From Patescibacteria group bacterium (lineage in GTDB: Bacteria > Patescibacteriota > Dojkabacteria > GCA-002793355): DNA of 64,000 bases. The DNA is taken from contig BOKM01000001.1 of the NCBI GenBank assembly GCA_016860985.1, positions 92,185-156,184 of the forward strand. The letters are read 5' to 3'. The position numbers were made by a program, and so were the translations under genes. Under the pieces are notes generated by a model. It did not search any database, was not told the DNA's origin, and saw only the letters and a list, made by a program, of their open reading frames with translations. Positions 54,121 to 64,000 of this stretch are shown here, piece after piece (the first letter of the stretch is position 1; each line of letters starts with the position of its first letter).

Positions 54121-54753
54121 TTATACCCCATACTGCTCACAGATTGGGAGAACTTCTAGTAAATTTGAAATAGTTGGGACGGTGCTGAGTGTGTCTGAAG
54201 TTTTGCGGTTACACCAAATAGGCCTAAATCGTGGCATATGTCGAGCCAATTTTTCGATAACATTTCTATCATCATCAACAATTATGACATCATCTGGTAA
54301 TTTTTCTAACGCGTCTATGCCAGTTTTTTTAGGGTCTATTATCACTAATTCTTTTTCAACATATTCAAGAATTCCTGTCGCTTCTATCCGTAGTCTTTGA
54401 TATCCTGGTACTGCTGCAGAAAAAATACCGATTTTCCACCCTCGTTTTACGAATTCTGTAAGTGTTTGTTTTACTTCAGGAAACACAAACTGAGCGATAT
54501 AACTCGGGGTTGTGAGATAGATTTTGATGATATCACTTGGCACAACCGAAAATAGTTCTGCCATAAACTGAGCATAGCCTTCTGGTGTGAATTCAAGATG
54601 GTCAACGCTACTGACATAGGCGCGCATTCCTTCCTCGACTTGGGCAGCTGTCAATTGAGTAATAGTTGCAACGCGATTTGCTTGCTCAAGCTTAAGCGAA
54701 TCGGTATCAAGTAGCGTTCTATCGAAATCAAAATATATAACGCTACTCTTCAT
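54121..54753 (-). CDS. HAD-superfamily hydrolase
   Basis: Motif I is FDFDRTLLDT (DxDxT). The C-terminal motif IIVDD is present. Confidence 0.6.
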   Translation of the reverse strand: MKSSVIYFDFDRTLLDTDSLKLEQANRVATITQLTAAQVEEGMRAYVSSVDHLEFTPEGYAQFMAELFSVVPSDIIKIYLTTPSYIAQFVFPEVKQTLTEFVKRGWKIGIFSAAVPGYQRLRIEATGILEYVEKELVIIDPKKTGIDALEKLPDDVIIVDDDRNVIEKLARHMPRFRPIWCNRKTSDTLSTVPTISNLLEVLPICEQYGV

Positions 54754-56368: not shown

Positions 56369-56653
56369 CTAAGCACGTGAGGCTTCAATATGGGCTGCAA
56401 TAAATTGAAGTTTTTCTTCTCGCGTCATTTGCTTAATTTCATACTCTCGTTTTGCTGCGCTTTTTCTATTGGGAAAGCGTTCACTAATTAGTAAGCTCAC
56501 CGGTCTACGCGCTGCAGTGTATTTCGCTCCACTATCAAGATTATTGTGCTCATATATTCTCCGCGCGACATCTGTGGTTATACCGGTATAGAGCGTTTTA
56601 TCTGCACACTTAACGATATACACAAAATATTCCATGCTACATTTTTTGAACAA
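56369..56653 (-). CDS. GIY-YIG nuclease-domain protein (UPF0213/YhbQ-like); the probable start is the internal MEYFVYIV
   Basis: The GIY-YIG core is present: FVYIVKC...LYTGIT...R...EH, with a conserved Arg and Glu. Confidence 0.7.
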   Translation of the reverse strand: MFKKCSMEYFVYIVKCADKTLYTGITTDVARRIYEHNNLDSGAKYTAARRPVSLLISERFPNRKSAAKREYEIKQMTREEKLQFIAAHIEASRA

Positions 56654-57038
56654 ATTGCTTCATTGGCTCAACTATTTCTGAAATTTCAGTGTATTCTATA
56701 AATAGGTCAGCAACTCCTCGTATTGTGTCTCGTACTGTTGTCCCCTTTTTGGTCGCGATGATTATTTTCTTTTTTAGTGCGTAGGCCATTCCAAGCTCAA
56801 CAATTCTCCCCGTTCCTGGACCATCAAAATCAATAAAGAGTGCGTCACACTGCTCGAGTTCTTCTAATGCACTTTTCATAAGTAAACGAGAATCGAAAAA
56901 CATTTTTTCGTAGTGTTCAACATCCCGTATAAAGCAGAAGTCTTGATAACCTGCTTCTTTAATTAAGGAGCATAGCTTTTCGATTTCTGCTTTGTTATCT
57001 GCTCCAGCGAAATGGGCGGTGATGTAGATTTTATTCAT
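56637..57038 (-). CDS. Nucleoside 2-deoxyribosyltransferase-like protein
   Basis: The Rossmann-like pattern KIYITAHFAG...ELGMAYALKKKII resembles the NDT catalytic-Glu region. Confidence 0.45.
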   Translation of the reverse strand: MNKIYITAHFAGADNKAEIEKLCSLIKEAGYQDFCFIRDVEHYEKMFFDSRLLMKSALEELEQCDALFIDFDGPGTGRIVELGMAYALKKKIIIATKKGTTVRDTIRGVADLFIEYTEISEIVEPMKQFVQKM

Positions 57039-57684
57039 TAATTTTTATCAATAATTTTATGCGATTAATCTCTTGTGTAAGTTTTTCTACATAACCCAAT
57101 TCGACATATTTCTGCGCGAGAGGCATAAAGACATCAATCGTTTCCCTGACATACCGCTTATATTTAGGTAAATTGTTGCCAACGGTTGTCGGAACTATAC
57201 ACGAGAGATTTGAAAGCCGATCTTCGATTTTTATGATTGAAGCGAGTCTATTTTCACTAAGGCGAATAACATAATTTTTATTTATTTCATATTTTTCGAT
57301 TTCCGTCAGTGATTCACTATTTTCTCTATCATCCTTTGTCAAAAAACGTATTGCAGCAGCAATCTCTTCGCCAAATTGTGCTTTAACTTGCTCAATTGAC
57401 ACATCTTTTGAATCTTCTACTGAATCATGCAGTAAACCACAGATGAGTAGCTCCTTGAAATGAGAATTCCCTAGGTATTTTTCAATGATTTTCACTCCCA
57501 TACTCCAGATGTGCTCTTCAAGATATGGTGTACCGCTATCTCTTTTCTGATCTTGATGTGCAAGGATTGCAAATTCGATTGCTTTTTCAATCTGATGGTA
57601 ATCCGCAGGCCGAAAACTGGCTTTTTTGAGCCGATTAAGAAAAGTACTTTTTGTGGTAAATGGTAGTGAATCCGAATTCATCAT
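57031..57684 (-). CDS. Stand-alone RelA/SpoT-type HD-domain protein (small alarmone hydrolase, (p)ppGpp pyrophosphohydrolase-like)
   Basis: The motifs AIEFAILAHQDQKRDSGTPYLEH, CGLLHDSVEDS (the HD-ED motif) and FGEEIAAAIRFLTK are present. Confidence 0.65.
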   Translation of the reverse strand: MMNSDSLPFTTKSTFLNRLKKASFRPADYHQIEKAIEFAILAHQDQKRDSGTPYLEEHIWSMGVKIIEKYLGNSHFKELLICGLLHDSVEDSKDVSIEQVKAQFGEEIAAAIRFLTKDDRENSESLTEIEKYEINKNYVIRLSENRLASIIKIEDRLSNLSCIVPTTVGNNLPKYKRYVRETIDVFMPLAQKYVELGYVEKLTQEINRIKLLIKINE

Positions 57685-57728
57685 GTCAGATTATAGCGGA
57701 TAACAGTGTTTTGAAAGAGATACACAAA

Positions 57729-57842
57729 GGGATTCGGTCACCACGCGGAAGTTTTGTTCTCTTTGCTCCAAAACATCACGCTCCCTGGTTCTTTTGACAA
57801 CAAATTGTTGTTGACTCACTCCCGTTTCGAATCCCTCTGTTG
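57729..57842. repeat. Copy A of a ~115-bp tRNA-trailer-associated element; inverted relative to copy B
   Basis: The reverse complement aligns to 59529-59647. The 5' 55 nt are about 93% identical and the overall identity is about 80%. It contains an internal hairpin (caacaa...ttgttg). Confidence 0.6.
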
Positions 57843-57961
57843 AATCTTCCTTTTTATTAAAATTCTCTCTTTCATTCCGTTTTTAGAAAAATTCGGTTCA
57901 TGACCGTAACTAAAAAGAACTGGTTTCTTTTTAGTAGGGAATGAGAGAATTTTAATGAAAA

Positions 57962-58048
57962 CGGAGAGGGAGGGATTCGAACCCTCGATACGGAAAACCG
58001 TATGCTACTTTTCGAGAGTAGTGCCATCAACCACTCAGCCACCTCTCC
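57962..58048 (-). tRNA. tRNA-Ser (anticodon CGA) with a long variable arm; no CCA is encoded
   Basis: The acceptor stem is GGAGAGG/CCUCUCC. The D-stem has 3 bp. The anticodon loop is CUCGAAA. The 18-nt variable arm forms a hairpin. The T-arm is GAGGG-UUCGAAU-CCCUC. Confidence 0.85.
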
Positions 58049-58131
58049 GTATTTCTCCCGTATTATAGTATGCCTACAGATATCCGTCTATCACTCGTTG
58101 CACGATTAAAAACTTCAGAGTACAGTATTTT

Positions 58132-58764
58132 ATGAACAATGTTAGAACACTTCTTCCACCTCTTTTTCAAGATTTTGGACCATCTTCGTCACTAGAAACC
58201 GCGATTGCCGAAAATAGATGGATTGCGACTGTAAACTTATGGATTTTGCAGACAGAGCCTGTCCCTTCGATTCTCTATCAACAACGAAGCATGAATAAAA
58301 GTTGGGCTCCAGGCAAACTTGATGTCGTAGCAGGCGGAAAAGTAGACGAGGGGGAGTCACTCATTGAAACATTATTACGGGAAACCAAAGAAGAGATCGG
58401 GCTCGATGTTCCGCCTTCGGCGTGTACATACATTGGAAAACGGCTTCATGTTGGCGAAACGCAGTATGGATTTCAAAATACCGTATTAAACCTTTACTTC
58501 ACAGTATACAACCAACCCCTTTCTGAATATGTTCTACAGAAAGAAGAAGTCGCTGGAATTTATAACCTTGATATTGATCTGCTTCTTAAACTACATCGTG
58601 GAGAGCTGGAGAGTTTTTGGGCAACAGGCCTGGATGATAGTGGTAGTGAATCTAAAATCAACATTACACCAGCATTGTTCCCTGAAAATTGGGATAACTA
58701 CCACCAAAAGATTGCAGAACTAGCCAAAAAGTATTTTGAAGGTGTAGCAGATATAGTGTATTAG
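58132..58764 (+). CDS. NUDIX hydrolase
   Basis: The Nudix box is GGKVDEGESLIETLLRETKEEIGLDV. Confidence 0.8.
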   Translation: MNNVRTLLPPLFQDFGPSSSLETAIAENRWIATVNLWILQTEPVPSILYQQRSMNKSWAPGKLDVVAGGKVDEGESLIETLLRETKEEIGLDVPPSACTYIGKRLHVGETQYGFQNTVLNLYFTVYNQPLSEYVLQKEEVAGIYNLDIDLLLKLHRGELESFWATGLDDSGSESKINITPALFPENWDNYHQKIAELAKKYFEGVADIVY

Positions 58765-58797
58765 TACCCTTTTACACACACTTATTTGCGAGTATAA

Positions 58798-59394
58798 TTG
58801 TTCATGAATAGAAATGATTTTATCGTTGCACTTCAGCAACAACTTGAACCAAATATAGTTCGCCATTCTTTCGCAGTAGAAGCGTGTATGGAGGGTATAT
58901 ATGACTATCTTCAGTCACAAGGTCGTATCACAGCCTCAGAACCAGATAAAGCTGATTGGCTACTCGCAGGGCTCATCCATGATTGCGACTTCGGTGGAGA
59001 ATTCAAAGCAGAACACCCAGCACACACACGTGATATGTTAAAAAAATACAATCTCGAAATTTCTGATACTGTTCTCAATATCGTCAAAGCACATGCACCT
59101 GAACTTACTGGTTATGCACCCCAAAATCTTGCCGAATGGTCAATCTTTTGTGTTGACAGCTTAACTGGTTTAATAACTGCAGTAGCGTATGTTTACCCCT
59201 CAAGAAAGATTGCAGACGTAAAAGTATCATCTGTGCTAAAACGATTCTTAAAAGAACCAAAATTTGCTGCAGGAACACGAAGAAACGAAGTGGCAATGTG
59301 TGAAAAAGCAGACGGGCTTAACATTCCTCTTGAAAAGTTCATAGAAATCTCGCTAACATCGATGCAAAGAATAGCTCCAGCTCTAGAGTTATAA
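58798..59394 (+). CDS. HD-domain phosphohydrolase
   Basis: The H...HD metal motif is present (HSFAVEAC...GLIHDCDFGG). Confidence 0.55.
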   Translation: MFMNRNDFIVALQQQLEPNIVRHSFAVEACMEGIYDYLQSQGRITASEPDKADWLLAGLIHDCDFGGEFKAEHPAHTRDMLKKYNLEISDTVLNIVKAHAPELTGYAPQNLAEWSIFCVDSLTGLITAVAYVYPSRKIADVKVSSVLKRFLKEPKFAAGTRRNEVAMCEKADGLNIPLEKFIEISLTSMQRIAPALEL

Positions 59395-59408
59395 GCAAGC
59401 TCACAAAA

Positions 59409-59481
59409 AGCTCTCGTAGTCTAATCGGATAAAACACTAGCTTCCGGAGCTGGATTTGTGGGTTCGAGTCCCGCCGAGAGC
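59409..59481 (+). tRNA. tRNA-Arg (anticodon CCG); no CCA is encoded
   Basis: The acceptor stem is GCUCUCG/CGAGAGC. The anticodon stem-loop is CUAGC-UUCCGGA-GCUGG. The T-arm is GUGGG-UUCGAGU-CCCGC. There is one non-canonical pair in the D-stem. Confidence 0.7.
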
Positions 59482-59528
59482 ATATTGTATCTGGTATATG
59501 ATTTAGACAGACAGATACGATATGCATA

Positions 59529-59647
59529 CAACGAGGGATTCGAAACGTGAGTGAGACAACAACAATTTGTTGTCGAAAGAACCGGGGGTCGAGGAGCGAG
59601 CGTTTTCAGAGCAAAGGAATGAAAATGCCGCGAGGTGACCGAGTCCC
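59529..59647. repeat. Copy B of the ~115-bp tRNA-trailer-associated element
   Basis: It aligns to the reverse complement of 57729-57842. It contains a perfect 8-bp hairpin (gacaacaa-caat-ttgttgtc). Confidence 0.6.
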
Positions 59648-59660
59648 GCCGAGAGCATAT
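59640..59660 (+). repeat. 21-bp perfect direct duplicate of the tRNA-Arg(CCG) 3' end (cgagtcccgccgagagcatat); att-like
   Basis: It is identical to 59464-59484, which runs from the tRNA T-loop to 3 nt past the 3' end. Confidence 0.6.
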
Positions 59661-59672
59661 ATAACAAAATCC

Positions 59673-60740
59673 TTAAACCAAGAACATATTAATCAATTTC
59701 TGAAAGAGATTGTTGTTGTTCATATACTGATCAAAGATAATGTGTTCAATTCCAGCATTTTGGGCAAATTGTGAATCGACTTCACTATCACCGAAATAGA
59801 TGAATTCTTTTGGAGGAATTCCTATTCTGTTGATTAAGTCGGACAAACAATAGGGATTCGGTTTTTTGTACCCTGCGTCAGCACAAGAAATTATCTCGTC
59901 AAAATAGGCGGAGATTCCATTGTACTCAAGTACTTTATTGAGTAATACTTTTGAACGATTGGTACAAATATACAATTTACGACCACGCTGCTTGAGCAGC
60001 TGTAACATTTCGATAACACCATCAAAAAGCTTCATTCTCTGAATATTCTCCTGCTGAATGACCTTATCGTAGGCAAGCAATTTTTTGATATCTGCCTTAA
60101 TTCCAAGATCCTTTAAAATAGTCACATATAAATCTTCAATCGCCATACCTCTTACGGAGTCATGTATCTGACAGATTAAATCAAAGTCGGCTGCAGGTAC
60201 TTGCGAGGTTATGGAGCGTGCAATTGTTTCTCCGCAGAATTTCCTTCCATCGACCAACGTATCATCTAAATCGAAGACAAAGGCACGCTTTGGAGCACTA
60301 CGTTCCTGGTCATTTTGGGCGTTTGAGGCGTTAGCTTCATCGCCATCAGTAAAAAAATATCCTAGTGGTTTTCCAACAATAACTGCGATTTGCTCCAATC
60401 GCTCAACCGAAAGTGGTACAGCACCAAGTTCATAACGACTAACCATTACTTCGGTGCATTTTAAGCGATCAGATAACTGTTTTTGCGTGAGTCCGACCTC
60501 TTGCCTTGCTAATTTTACTTTTTCTCCAATTGACAACTTCATCGATGAATTATACATCCCATTACTAGTACTGCCAATATGTGCACTGTCGTGTATGGCT
60601 AGGATATGATACGATTCTGATATGGAACTCCCAATTTCGCATAAAATAGTTTCGCAGCTCACACGTGTTGAGTACTTACTTGCAACACTCCCCAGAGGTA
60701 TTGATTTTGACTCATTTCTAAAAAAGCAGTCTAAAGACAA
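59673..60740 (-). CDS. Fusion protein: XRE-family HTH DNA-binding domain plus a HAD-superfamily phosphatase domain; the probable start is the internal MKLSIGEK, about nt 60542
   Basis: The HTH is KVKLARQEVGLTQKQLSDRLKCTEVMVSRYELG. HAD motif I is FVFDLDDTLVDG. HAD motif IV is GDSEVDSQFAQNAG. Confidence 0.6.
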   Translation of the reverse strand: MSLDCFFRNESKSIPLGSVASKYSTRVSCETILCEIGSSISESYHILAIHDSAHIGSTSNGMYNSSMKLSIGEKVKLARQEVGLTQKQLSDRLKCTEVMVSRYELGAVPLSVERLEQIAVIVGKPLGYFFTDGDEANASNAQNDQERSAPKRAFVFDLDDTLVDGRKFCGETIARSITSQVPAADFDLICQIHDSVRGMAIEDLYVTILKDLGIKADIKKLLAYDKVIQQENIQRMKLFDGVIEMLQLLKQRGRKLYICTNRSKVLLNKVLEYNGISAYFDEIISCADAGYKKPNPYCLSDLINRIGIPPKEFIYFGDSEVDSQFAQNAGIEHIIFDQYMNNNNLFQKLINMFLV

Positions 60741-61683
60741 TCAAACGACTGATGTACTCACACTTGCTGCCACAACAGATTACACGATAGACGAGGAAAC
60801 TGCACGCATGTTACTGGAATCAAAAACTGGTTTTCCCACACAACAGAATTTCAGGTTTCTCTTCAACTGCATTACAGTCCTTCATTCTGCGCGAAACCTT
60901 CGAGAGAACGCTTTTAACTCTGCCCTTTTGCAACAATACAACAAACTCATTTCAGATGGATTTACTGACTTTTGGGAAGAAGGTAAAGTTCGAGCTGCAC
61001 ATGAGACCCCTGCCACAACATACGACAGTTTACGGAATAAGCCTCCACATTTTGAGTATCAAATGTGGATTGATGTGCGACAGACGCTCAGTTACTCGGA
61101 ATCAATTATTCATCCACTTCTCTCTGCCGCTTCAACACTTTACCATCTTATTTACAGCTACCCATTTTTGCAGTTTAATCTTCAAACAGCACTTCTGAGT
61201 ACAAATGCTAACGTTCGCCCTTCTCGCTACTATGCATCAGGAACGGTCTCAACAATAAAAGCTGCATGGAATACCCTTCATCGTACTGATTTTACATTCT
61301 CACCTGCCCCACACCACTTCACCCAATTCAGTGAGAGATTTATAGATGAATACTTGTCACAACTTGAAAGCATCCACGACACACTTACACACAGGACCTC
61401 ACTCCCAAGTCACATCAGAACATCGCTAAACGACAGGCAATTAAAAATTCTCTCTTATTTCAAACAATACAAAAAGATTACACGAAAGAAGTACGCGAAA
61501 ACGATGAAGGTTGCGATTGCTACCGCATTCAGAGATCTTAATGACTTAGCCTCAAAAGGGCTTATTGCGACCGTTGGAAAAGGAAGAGCAACAAGCTATA
61601 TTCTCCCAAACCAAACAGAAGCAGAACTCCGCCAAGAAACTATGCCACAAAGAGAAGTTATCGCTACTGTAATCGACGACTAG
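60622..61683 (+). CDS. Fic/DOC-like protein with a degenerate active-site motif and a C-terminal winged HTH
   Basis: The position equivalent to HPFx(D/E)GNGR reads IHPLLSAASTLYHLI. The C-terminus (LNDRQLKILSYF...RDLNDLASKGLIATVGKGRATSYIL) matches the Fic-associated wHTH. Confidence 0.45.
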   Translation: MELPISHKIVSQLTRVEYLLATLPRGIDFDSFLKKQSKDNQTTDVLTLAATTDYTIDEETARMLLESKTGFPTQQNFRFLFNCITVLHSARNLRENAFNSALLQQYNKLISDGFTDFWEEGKVRAAHETPATTYDSLRNKPPHFEYQMWIDVRQTLSYSESIIHPLLSAASTLYHLIYSYPFLQFNLQTALLSTNANVRPSRYYASGTVSTIKAAWNTLHRTDFTFSPAPHHFTQFSERFIDEYLSQLESIHDTLTHRTSLPSHIRTSLNDRQLKILSYFKQYKKITRKKYAKTMKVAIATAFRDLNDLASKGLIATVGKGRATSYILPNQTEAELRQETMPQREVIATVIDD

Positions 61684-63230
61684 TTGCTACCAGAGGTTAA
61701 GCGGGCCAAGATCAGCTTGTCTACTTGCTGTGGATTGGCCTTTCCTTGCAATTCTTTCATAGCCTGACCAATCAGGAACTTATACGCATTAGGGTTCTTC
61801 TGCATATCTGCAACTACTTTGGGGTTTGAAGCTACTACTTTTTCAACAACTGCTTGAATTGCCGATTCATCGTTTACCATTTCCAAACCATTCTCACGGA
61901 TATATGTTTCAGGATCAATTCCAGATTCAAACATTGCGACAACCACCTGCTTTGCGCTCGGAGCGGAGATCTTCGAACTTTTGAGCAATTGGACAAGCGC
62001 AACGAGCTGTTTTGGCTGTATTTTCAACTGAGAGAGTTTAGATTTTGACGCTTTCATTAGCGCAACAACTTCTCCTACAAACCATTTTCCAACTGCGACG
62101 ATTACTTCTTTGTCTTCAACTCCCTCAATTGCTTTTTCAAACCACTCAGCTTTTGCTTTGGTTGCGGTCAGCGTTTCTGCAAGGGCTGCATCCACACCAT
62201 AATCATTTATATAGCGTGCTTTTTTCTCTGACGGCAGTTCACCAAGTGTCTGCCGAAGCTCCTGAATCTCTTTTTCTGTATAAATAATTGGCGGAATATC
62301 AGGCTCAGGAAAGTAGCGATAATCATTTGCTTCTTCTTTTACACGCTGAGAATACGTTACTCCTGACAAATCACGCAAGCCACGAGTTTCCTGTACAGGG
62401 ATCTCTCCCTTTTCGAGTATCTCTTGCTGCCTGTTGTATTCATAGGTAATAACTTTTTCTAAAACAGAAATTGAGCCGATGTTTTTGACCTCAACCTTAT
62501 ATTTCGGAAGTGACGTTTCGCCAGTTTTACGTAAAGACATGTTCAGCTCAAAGCGCATTTGCCCCTTCTCCATATCCGCATCACTTACGCCGATATATTT
62601 CACAATTTGCTTTAAGCGCTTTGCGAACGATAGCACTTCTTTAACATCAGAAAAATCGGGTTCTGTAACAACTTCGACAAGAGGGACCCCTGACTTATTA
62701 AAGTCCAGCAAGGTTTTTGTCTCAGAATGAATTGATTTTCCAGTATCTTCTTCCATATGTACCCTGGTAATTCGGATTTGTTTCTCACGAGAACCGGACA
62801 AATCTATATTCACATTTCCTTCGTATCCAAACGGCAAATCGTACTGAGAAATCTGATAGGCCTTTGGGAGGTCTGGATAAAAATAGTTCTTTCTATCAAA
62901 CTTTGAAAACATATTGATATTGCAGCCGAGTGCCAAAGAGAGTCTAATGCATTGCTCAATTGCTTTCTTGTTTGGAACTGGCAGCGCACCTGGCAACCCT
63001 AAACAAACCGGACACACGTGACTATTCGGGGCTGCGTTAAAATACTTTGCATCACATCTACAAAACATTTTTGACTTCGTTTTTGCCTGAATGTGAATCT
63101 CAAGCCCAATGACTATTTCGTATTTCATATTATTTTGCAATTCTCGTTTGATATATATATGCAGTATCGAGTACCAACTGCTCTGCGAACTGTGGACCAA
63201 AAATCTGCATTCCAATTGGTAGGTTTTCAT
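61680..63230 (-). CDS. gatB: Asp/Glu-tRNA amidotransferase subunit B; the probable start is the internal MKYEIVIGLEIH, about nt 63128
   Basis: The motif YEIVIGLEIHIQ is present. The Cys cluster reads FCRCD...CPVCLGLPG. A C-terminal YqeY-like tail is present. Confidence 0.9.
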   Translation of the reverse strand: MKTYQLECRFLVHSSQSSWYSILHIYIKRELQNNMKYEIVIGLEIHIQAKTKSKMFCRCDAKYFNAAPNSHVCPVCLGLPGALPVPNKKAIEQCIRLSLALGCNINMFSKFDRKNYFYPDLPKAYQISQYDLPFGYEGNVNIDLSGSREKQIRITRVHMEEDTGKSIHSETKTLLDFNKSGVPLVEVVTEPDFSDVKEVLSFAKRLKQIVKYIGVSDADMEKGQMRFELNMSLRKTGETSLPKYKVEVKNIGSISVLEKVITYEYNRQQEILEKGEIPVQETRGLRDLSGVTYSQRVKEEANDYRYFPEPDIPPIIYTEKEIQELRQTLGELPSEKKARYINDYGVDAALAETLTATKAKAEWFEKAIEGVEDKEVIVAVGKWFVGEVVALMKASKSKLSQLKIQPKQLVALVQLLKSSKISAPSAKQVVVAMFESGIDPETYIRENGLEMVNDESAIQAVVEKVVASNPKVVADMQKNPNAYKFLIGQAMKELQGKANPQQVDKLILARLTSGSN

Positions 63231-64000
63231 TGTTTACACCAACCGGGACTGAAATGCAGGGTAGTCCTGCAAGGGCGCTAGATTCGGTCAACATATCAGC
63301 GAGCTCTCCGAATAGTGGGTTATTTTTAGTTACACCCTGCTCAGGAGCAACGGTAGGCATTGTTGGTCCAATAATTACATCTACTTGCTTAAAGGCGTTA
63401 GCGAAATCTTGGATAATTAGCGTTCTAACTTTTTGTGCTTTCTTGTAATATGCATCGTAGTATCCTGCGGAAAGTGCGTAAGCTCCTGTCATACTTCGCT
63501 GCTTCGCTTCGTTTCCAAAACCTTCTCCTCTATTGTATGCAATTTGATCGAGTACCGATTCTGCTTTCTTTTCTGATACATGTCCATATCGAATTCCGTC
63601 AATTCTGGCCAAATTCGAAGATACCTCACTTCTACATACGATGGTATACACCGCAACTGCATATTTTGGATCAAGTAAATCAATATCGACAAGTGTTGCA
63701 CCAAGTTTTTCATATTCTGCCAGCATTTCACGCACACGCGCACTCACCTGAGGGTCAATCCGTTCATCCAAAAACTGCTTCGGAATCCCTATCTTCAAGC
63801 CCGTGTGGTCGGCAGAAAGAGCCTTTCTATACTCCACTTTTTCAACTGGAATTGTTGTTGCATCGTGTGAATCCTTTCCGGCAATAATATCGGTTACCAG
63901 CGCACAATCTTCGACACAATTTGCGAGAACCCCTGGTCGGTCAAGCGAGGATCCCATTGCAACGACTCCATAACGGCTGTTACGCCCATACGTAGGTGCA
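63130..64000 (-). CDS. gatA: Asp/Glu-tRNA amidotransferase subunit A, C-terminal part; the gene continues beyond the right edge of the window
   Basis: The frame stays open upstream of the ORF-track Met (…PTYGRNSRYGVVAMGSSLDRPG), which matches the amidase-signature region. The stop abuts the gatB start. Confidence 0.85.
   Translation of the reverse strand, partial: APTYGRNSRYGVVAMGSSLDRPGVLANCVEDCALVTDIIAGKDSHDATTIPVEKVEYRKALSADHTGLKIGIPKQFLDERIDPQVSARVREMLAEYEKLGATLVDIDLLDPKYAVAVYTIVCRSEVSSNLARIDGIRYGHVSEKKAESVLDQIAYNRGEGFGNEAKQRSMTGAYALSAGYYDAYYKKAQKVRTLIIQDFANAFKQVDVIIGPTMPTVAPEQGVTKNNPLFGELADMLTESSALAGLPCISVPVGVNNENLPIGMQIFGPQFAEQLVLDTAYIYQTRIAK

Follow-up and report, generated by a model that had tools for sequence, protein, structure and literature searches.

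The 64-kb stretch of DNA analysed here (the window), taken from contig BOKM01000001.1 of a Patescibacteria group bacterium of the Dojkabacteria, carries near one end a pair of divergently oriented genes. The minus-strand gene encodes a 289-aa protein that joins an XRE/Cro-C1-type helix-turn-helix (HTH) to a HAD phosphatase domain (HTH-HAD), and the plus-strand gene encodes a 353-aa Fic-like protein (FicL) with a Fic fold that lacks the catalytic residues and with a C-terminal winged HTH (wHTH). Both genes were confirmed in the list of open reading frames (ORFs), and their start codons are separated by a divergent promoter region of 79 bp (Table 1). GC content is about 40% and uniform along the window, and the genes of the window have matches in Patescibacteria metagenome-assembled genomes (MAGs); an identical copy of the HTH-HAD protein is present on an NCBI contig, and in another MAG the two genes have adjoining accession numbers, MFZ6022766.1 (annotated as a hypothetical protein) and MFZ6022767.1 (annotated as a HAD-IIIA family hydrolase of 289 aa). 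A first-pass annotation, made from the letters alone, had read the pair as a diverged regulatory or defence module, in which an enzyme-fused regulator accompanies a catalytically dead Fic scaffold next to a tRNA integration site.

Table 1. Features of the locus and its surroundings (window coordinates, unless another locus is named).
Feature	Position	Strand	Evidence or remark
HTH-HAD gene, 289 aa	59673..60542	-	ATG at 60542, which is M67 of the long ORF
XRE/Cro-C1 HTH of HTH-HAD	60354..60515	-	Pfam HTH_3, E 3.4e-9; residues 76-129 of the long ORF
HAD-IA phosphatase domain, motifs I-IV intact	59739..60278	-	Pfam HAD_2, E 2.5e-28
HTH-HAD promoter	60549..60577	-	-35 TTGGCA 60577..60572; -10 TATAAT 60554..60549; scan 11/12 match
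Operator-like element around the -35	60563..60586	-	family consensus AGTAGTA-TTGACAG-TACTAGTA (alignment A4)
TGATACGAT, extended -10-like	60607..60615	+	invariant 9-mer ending 6 nt before the FicL ATG
FicL gene, 353 aa	60622..61683	+	Fic fold without catalytic residues, C-terminal wHTH
HPLLSAASTLY, residues 164-174	61111..61143	+	helix preceding the Fic loop; aligns with FICD HPVEFAALAHY
Fic motif slot S-YPFLQFNLQT-A, residues 179-190	61156..61191	+	aligns with FICD I-HPFIDGNGRT-S
FicL C-terminal wHTH	61423..61605	+	Pfam HTH_DeoR, 21.3 bits (cut-off 21)
Second HAD gene, HTH-less	54121-54753
Nucleoside 2-deoxyribosyltransferase-like gene	56637-57038
HD_4 / RelA-SpoT-type hydrolase gene	57031-57684
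tRNA-Ser			between the HD_4 hydrolase and NUDIX genes
NUDIX gene	58132-58764
HD gene	58798-59394
tRNA-Arg (anticodon CCG)	59410..59482	+	ARAGORN; Rfam tRNA, 57.4 bits
20-bp direct repeat, copy 1 (tRNA-Arg 3' end plus TAT)	59466..59485	+	exact match; 0 expected in shuffles
20-bp direct repeat, copy 2	59641..59660	+	155 bp downstream; just before the HAD stop codon
gatB	61680..63125	-	ORF list; tblastn synteny; Pfam GatB in relatives; convergent with FicL
gatA (amidase)	63130..64000	-	truncated by the window edge; ORF list, synteny
Lineage-specific ORFs in the HD-FicL interval	L009 6473-7039; L011 3817-4518; L012 7443-7970

Scored against the Pfam Fic family (PF02661), FicL itself reaches 17.9 bits, below the cut-off of 24 bits, and 18 of the 49 members of its broad family match Pfam Fic at E <= 0.01. 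The homology of FicL to Fic proteins is secure because the profile of this broad family matches the solved Fic structures 8cil (CbFic2; E = 1.5e-20), 4rgl (3.4e-12) and FICD (5e-11), and because the top nine PDB entries that Foldseek retrieved with the AlphaFold2 (AF2) model of FicL (pLDDT 76) are all Fic-wHTH proteins (8cil, 7xux [CccR], SoFic and 7cb8; E 3.5e-5 to 8e-4). Together with the HTH_DeoR match at the C-terminus, these comparisons bear out the Fic layout with a C-terminal wHTH that had been proposed for the plus-strand gene. A profile search of 1.8 billion representatives returned a continuum that runs from close relatives with YPFxxFNxQ to many full-length proteins of about 347 aa with xPFxxxNxxT, and canonical HPFxDGNGR Fic proteins surface in the same search at E values of 1e-15 to 1e-10.

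The first-pass annotation had located the ruined active-site motif at HPLLSAASTLY. Alignment with characterised Fic proteins (FICD, 8cil) confirmed that the motif is lost and the AMPylation residues are absent, but HPLLSAASTLY lies about 15 residues too far upstream, and the true slot is YPFLQFNLQT (residues 180-189; YPFLQFNLQTAL), which stands opposite HPFIDGNGRT in FICD and HPFDDGNGRIG in 8cil. In this slot His is replaced by Tyr, Asp by Gln, Gly-Asn-Gly by Phe-Asn-Leu, and Arg by Gln, and the second Arg of the motif (residue 192) is Leu; the phosphate-binding nest and both arginines have thus given way to hydrophobic or neutral residues. P, F and N are the sole canonical residues retained, and the sequence departs from the pattern HxFx(D/E)GN(G/K)RxxR; a back-mutated slot with the canonical motif would read HPFLDGNGRTAR. 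Of 116 related sequences that could be aligned through the core, 97 lack the His, seven have the His only, and 12 are canonical. As to the class II inhibitory helix, (S/T)xxxE(G/N), in an alignment with SLAIEN of 4rgl read by eye, the Ser and Glu positions face hydrophobic consensus residues.

Conservation in this family is concentrated in the wHTH (LNDRQ...TAFRDLNDL...GKGRATSY), which is the most conserved region of the whole FicL family, has invariant columns at R272, Q273, R304, D305 and Y326 across the broad family, and aligns with the wHTH of 8cil at E = 2e-7. In the core, by contrast, only R124, P181 and N186 survive across the broad dead-Fic family. In the narrow FicL family (18 clusters; alignment A1), an additional charged segment, NKLxxDGFxDFWEEGKVRxxHE...D..R (residues 107-138), is invariant; its position corresponds to that of the GxxR segment and the target-binding flap in canonical Fic proteins, and the AF2 model has low confidence there (pLDDT 47-62). 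The dead Fic-wHTH clade that includes FicL is Patescibacteria-wide, and no fewer than about 100 clusters at 50% identity lack the catalytic His. One protein of 2918 aa (P0142) has four separate stretches that match the wHTH of the FicL family (profile positions 268-333, E = 3.4e-38), so that this DNA-binding module is repeated in tandem, which is unusual.

For the minus-strand gene, the reading as an XRE HTH followed by a complete HAD domain with intact motifs held up, with Pfam scores well above the cut-offs, at 37 against 23 bits for HTH_3 (PF01381) and 99.8 against 23.8 bits for HAD_2; in the Pfam check of the pair, these two domains exceeded their thresholds and Fic did not. In an alignment of 30 homologues (A3), motifs I (DLDDT), II (CTNR), III (K232) and IV (GDSEVD) are invariant or nearly so, with invariant columns at D96/D98/T100, T199, K232 and G256-D257-x3-D261, and an unusual C-terminal tail, IIFDQYxNNxNLFxKLxNMFLE, is as conserved in these 30 members as the HAD motifs. 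The AF2 model (mean pLDDT 87) consists of an HTH and a capped HAD-IA domain that are joined by a disordered linker, with a helical cap at residues 104-170; the protein thus has motifs I-IV and, between I and II, the C1 cap that define the HAD-IA type. Foldseek matched the model to HAD-IA phosphatases, mostly of unknown substrate, such as SP_2064 (2GO7; E = 3e-11, TM 0.78 on the target), a protein of the phosphoglycolate phosphatase/YjjG/CTE7 type that shares with HTH-HAD the Rossmannoid core, the C1 cap and motifs I-IV, and domain-level matches to NCBIfam models ranged from 1e-21 to 1e-16. Unlike these phosphatases, HTH-HAD has an added N-terminal XRE HTH and the conserved C-terminal tail; matches found by Foldseek and phmmer cover the HAD part alone, and no PDB entry extended beyond the HAD domain. 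As the NCBIfam phosphoglycolate phosphatase/CTE7/YjjG equivalogs gave at best 76-77 bits, against cut-offs of 170-225 that were not reached, no substrate is assignable to HTH-HAD, nor did one emerge when structures and sequences were searched with the HAD domain.

Homologues of HTH-HAD are 289-294 aa long and 55-75% identical across phylum-level lineages, and HAD orthologues of about 220 aa without the HTH (55-64% identity) occur in the same phyla. The existence of this large conserved family alongside HTH-less orthologues suggests that the enzyme is the primary function and the HTH an added regulator. The fusion had been called uncommon, a description that does not hold within this lineage, where both domains occur together in about 80 of 120 clusters among the matches listed. 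In the literature searched for fusions of this kind in the Candidate Phyla Radiation, no HTH-HAD example and nothing else of relevance was found. Fusions of a DNA-binding domain with a metabolic enzyme, in which the protein represses its own or pathway genes, are represented by BirA, NadR and PutA. HTH-HAD resembles these proteins in its enzyme-regulator architecture, with a coupling of catalysis and DNA binding that is putative in HTH-HAD.

A 355-aa reading of the minus-strand ORF that starts at TTG was considered and rejected, as homologues begin at MKLSIGEK and the NCBI version has 289 aa. The 66 codons before MKLSIGEK are non-coding because the homologues start there and because a conserved promoter fills the codons that would read 'MYNSS'; the downstream start, on which the description of the protein as an N-terminal HTH fusion had depended, was thereby upheld, and with this start 5-10 residues separate the HTH from the N-terminus. 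The -10 box of this promoter stops 6 nt before the ATG, and the architecture (-35 and extended -10) is conserved at seven loci, including loci from Shapirobacteria and WWE3 (alignment A4), in the layout AGTAGTA-TTGACAG-TACTAGTA, N6, TGTATAAT, N6-8, start codon. An inverted repeat is centred on the -35, and reads AGTAGTATTGACAGTACTAGTA in the version of L009 or L017; in the window, the operator-like element is a single site (at most one mismatch, all 64 kb). From this arrangement we predict that a dimer of the HTH probably represses its own gene at the repeat. The suggestion that HTH-HAD is an enzyme-coupled regulator is thus plausible and gains support from the conserved repeat at its own -35, with DNA binding by the HTH being the inferred part.

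Upstream of FicL, the 9-mer TGATACGAT occupies positions -15 to -7 relative to the ATG at nine of nine distinct loci, irrespective of the upstream neighbour, with one copy per locus and almost none elsewhere in about 230 kb. It reads as an extended -10 element, TG-n-TACGAT, with no Shine-Dalgarno sequence, and the fact that it never varies, even at the non-consensus CG, suggests a further constraint. An inverted partner was sought from 120 nt upstream to 80 nt downstream at the nine loci, and none was found at a consistent distance; a palindromic operator of the CccR type is therefore unsupported. Extra copies of either cis element, which would be a sign of a regulon, were absent from the 64-kb window beyond the native sites.

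The position of the -10 boxes, which end 6 nt before the start codons, suggests leaderless mRNAs for both genes, and the mRNA of HTH-HAD, judged by its promoter, is probably leaderless. The same arrangement, with the -10 6 nt before the start and no Shine-Dalgarno sequence, is found for both genes and for homologues in L017, L018, L020 and L022. In a crude survey of the window, TANNNT occurred 5-8 nt before a candidate start in 31 of 55 long ORFs and a laxly defined Shine-Dalgarno sequence in 23; this genome may commonly use leaderless mRNAs, with the survey too unspecific to serve as genome-wide proof. Promoters that end 6 nt before start codons would represent cheap and testable evidence for leaderless expression in Patescibacteria.

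Scans of relatives added two loci from metagenomes and five from genomes, and hence the neighbour statistics rest on about 14 lineages. Across Dojkabacteria-like Patescibacteria, tblastn comparisons revealed a conserved core order of HD (196 aa), tRNA-Arg in some loci, HTH-HAD in some loci, FicL, gatCAB, a response regulator and MurJ. HTH-HAD adjoins FicL in the window, P0001, P0002 (on the same contig), L001, L009 and L011, is separated from it by 610 bp with a 175-aa ORF inside in L012, and is present on the FicL contig in P0006 and P0012. The expected conservation of the pair in relatives was thus found in part, with adjacency or a shared contig in nine of 14 lineages and no HTH-HAD neighbour for FicL in five others (L002, L006, L007, L008 and L004), or about one third of the narrow family. 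A neighbour-joining tree shows the HAD-positive lineages scattered, a pattern that fits an ancestral adjacency followed by several losses. Both genes also occur apart: HTH-HAD of Shapirobacteria and WWE3 (L017 and L018) lies among NDK, ClpP and trigger-factor genes without a FicL neighbour, and distant dead-Fic genes stand alone beside GroEL, UvrC and similar housekeeping genes. Taken together, these data are evidence against an obligate module; HTH-HAD and FicL are most likely neighbours by ancestry.

The steadiest neighbour of FicL is gatCAB, which lies directly downstream in all narrow-family loci examined except L009 (where a 3.8-kb insertion intervenes) and L004 (where it is absent, in the most divergent member). 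In three lineages gatCAB is co-directional with FicL, with the gatC start overlapping the FicL stop by 8 nt (L001 and L006) or located 1 nt from it (L002), while in the window and in L007, L008, L011 and L012 it is inverted and convergent with FicL.

Among characterised proteins, those closest to FicL combine an active Fic domain with DNA binding. CbFic2 of Coxiella burnetii (8CIL), the wHTH of which contributes to DNA binding (PMC10628234), is the best match to FicL in both sequence and fold (profile 1.5e-20, Foldseek 3.5e-5). SoFic of Shewanella oneidensis (3EQX/3ZCN) AMPylates EF-Tu and also binds to its own promoter, at a site no more than 100 bp from the start codon (bioRxiv 10.64898/2026.07.09.737422). 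CbFic2 and SoFic share with FicL the wHTH signature LNxRQ...TAxRDL...GxGRxxxY, but are active (de)AMPylases with HPFxDGNGR, which is not conserved in the FicL family, and a TSAIEG-type inhibitory helix, the positions of which appear not to be conserved there. CccR (7XUX) of Yersinia pseudotuberculosis, a class II toxin and autorepressor, represses its own promoter via its wHTH, and its catalytically dead H192A mutant still regulates (PMC9755527). CccR was the second Foldseek hit for FicL (E = 4.2e-5 over 357 columns) and has the same order of N-terminal helices, Fic core and C-terminal wHTH; it differs from FicL in that it has an intact HPFxxGNGR, AMPylates targets, is toxic, and is secreted by the type VI secretion system. 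Furthermore, CccR binds the palindrome AGATAATCAT-N26-ATGATAATCT, whereas the FicL locus shows a single conserved 9-mer only. Precedents for altered motifs in a Fic fold are AvrB, in which the AMPylation motif is lost or altered (PMC2686095), and the Bartonella Beps with non-canonical FIC motifs (PMC8401265, PMC7842960); these are secreted, host-targeting effectors without a wHTH, while the FicL family is encoded in the core genome, carries a wHTH and belongs to Patescibacteria.

The explanation that we favour, with moderate confidence, is that the locus contains two separate, chromosomally fixed regulators, i.e., an autoregulated phosphatase and a dead Fic protein that acts as a DNA-binding factor. 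HTH-HAD would be a HAD-IA phosphatase with a full catalytic set that carries its XRE HTH on a flexible linker, and self-repression at the -35 repeat would tie the level of the enzyme, and perhaps the occupancy of its substrate, to transcription; as a guess from the neighbouring NUDIX, HD and deoxyribosyltransferase genes, this substrate might be a nucleotide or sugar phosphate. FicL would trace back to AMPylases of class II with a Fic-wHTH layout, of which SoFic, CccR and CbFic2 are examples. It has lost the catalytic His and the acid that binds the metal, as well as the phosphate nest formed by Gly-Asn-Gly and the two arginines, and with them presumably all enzymatic activity, and it keeps the helical scaffold and the highly conserved wHTH. 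By analogy with these proteins, FicL is most likely a regulator-only descendant of Fic-wHTH enzymes; it would function as a DNA-binding factor only, the regulatory half of CccR or SoFic, with TGATACGAT at its own promoter as a possible site. Several observations weigh against this explanation. In the window, the left arm of the inverted repeat is degenerate and only the right arm, GTACTAGTA, is intact. Lacking a dyad partner, TGATACGAT looks more like a promoter element than like the operator of a classical dimer. The divergent adjacency seen in nine of the 14 lineages of known context appears ancestral, which makes some coupling through the 79 bp possible, and the conserved charged segment DFWEEGKVRxxHE of FicL could be a new ligand or catalytic site.

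In one alternative, the pair would form a functional module, in which HTH-HAD controlled the FicL promoter from the shared intergenic region, or the reverse, and a phosphometabolite set the level of FicL. A divergent spacing of about 80 bp is kept in the six lineages with adjoining genes, looks ancestral on the tree, and places the operator-like repeat some 30-45 bp upstream of the FicL -10. We nonetheless regard a module as unlikely, since the promoter element of FicL stays identical when an ABC transporter, an HD gene or a tRNA precedes it, since HTH-HAD genes elsewhere retain the same promoter and repeat with no FicL nearby, and since in L012 the 175-aa ORF lies between the two genes. A tie between FicL and translation, either through regulation of the gatCAB operon or through non-catalytic binding of a partner such as EF-Tu by a SoFic-type target surface, has in its favour the near-constant presence of gatCAB directly downstream, its operon-like arrangement in L001, L006 and L002, and the AMPylation of EF-Tu by SoFic. 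We give this link little credence, as the convergent orientation of gatCAB in the window and four other loci indicates that co-transcription is not required, and as broad-family members have no gatCAB neighbour, so that the association may be plain synteny in one narrow clade. It is slightly harder still to maintain that FicL is an enzyme with a non-canonical active site (DFWEEGKVRxxHE, Y-H...Y-P-F...N), comparable to the Doc kinase or to phosphocholination by AnkX. Narrow-family invariants do cluster near the flap and motif (D116, W118, E119, E120, K122, R124, E128, Y174, N186, Q188 and T189), but the small number of core residues that outlast the broad family, the greater conservation of the wHTH and the replacement of the phosphate nest and both arginines argue against catalysis.

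The proposal of a toxin-antitoxin, abortive-infection or defence module on a tRNA-integrated element, which the first-pass annotation had raised, is not supported by the data, and we consider it very improbable. What speaks for it is a tRNA-Arg at a distance of 190 bp, the 3' end of which is duplicated over 20 bp, the variable content of the HD-to-FicL interval among relatives, and weak PADLOC matches to the SoFic C-terminus (E = 5.6e-5) and the RmrA HTH. These PADLOC matches are partial and at the level of domains only, with the SoFic model covering the C-terminal 95 residues of FicL. FicL lacks every catalytic residue and thus cannot be a Fic toxin, and no small ORF for an alpha-inh antitoxin is present. 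No integrase, recombinase, phage gene or mobile element was found near the locus; the neighbours (deoxyribosyltransferase-like, HD_4, NUDIX, HD, def, rhomboid and gatCAB genes) have housekeeping or nucleotide-handling functions, the GC content is flat, the synteny is Dojkabacteria-wide, the two genes occur apart, and HTH-HAD is conserved across phyla like a housekeeping gene. Of the claimed tRNA integration site, the tRNA-Arg(CCG) and the 20-bp copy of its 3' end are real, but a tRNA-integrated island would combine a tRNA and a 3'-end repeat with an integrase and cargo between the repeats, and here the repeats enclose only 155 bp, with HTH-HAD and FicL both outside. It is very unlikely that the locus points to a new defence or toxin system.

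Fic proteins have been studied almost solely as AMPylating toxins and effectors. Literature searches for Fic domains in Patescibacteria found nothing relevant, and neither the dead Fic-wHTH clade nor the conserved HTH-HAD family was found described in the literature searched. A bolder and improbable proposal would be that the FicL clade was converted wholesale from AMPylases to core-genome DNA-binding regulators and that, in Dojkabacteria, it was wired to gatCAB and translation as an operon regulator or EF-Tu binder; if true, 'dead Fic' transcription factors would have here their first family known from nature. The dead Fic-wHTH clade would provide natural evidence that the transcription-factor role recently shown for CccR and SoFic can stand alone, as well as an entry point to gene regulation in organisms where very few regulators can be recognised. 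The HTH-HAD family, with its own conserved promoter and repeat, offers a candidate enzyme-regulator for the salvage metabolism, itself poorly understood, of reduced Patescibacteria genomes. The locus is of interest chiefly because the dead Fic-wHTH clade is large and belongs to the core genome, and because the HTH-HAD family is conserved in Patescibacteria.

With regard to the surroundings, a run of nucleotide-handling genes (56637-59394) lies directly upstream of the locus, and may be a salvage cluster that gives a weak hint at the substrate class of HTH-HAD. The same tRNA-Arg sits between the HD gene and the FicL gene in L008 and L009, and the second copy of the 20-bp repeat could be a scar of an old integration or excision. 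The spacer of 190 nt between tRNA-Arg and HTH-HAD (59483-59672) is predicted to fold well (z = -4.9, with none of 200 shuffles as good) and holds a perfect 8-bp hairpin, GACAACAA/UUGUUGUC. An Rfam scan of 57700-61800 returned the two tRNAs alone, with the remaining matches far under threshold, and the structured spacer thus belongs to no known family; it may represent a scar left by integration, or else a small RNA that lacks annotation. The interval between HD and FicL represents a small hotspot, in which lineage-specific ORFs of 175-233 aa, tRNA-Arg and HTH-HAD occur in varying combinations. Finally, FicL and gatB overlap by 4 nt in the palindrome CTAG (61680-61683), which provides both stop codons and leaves no space for terminators, and the same overlap is found in L007 (7026-7029).

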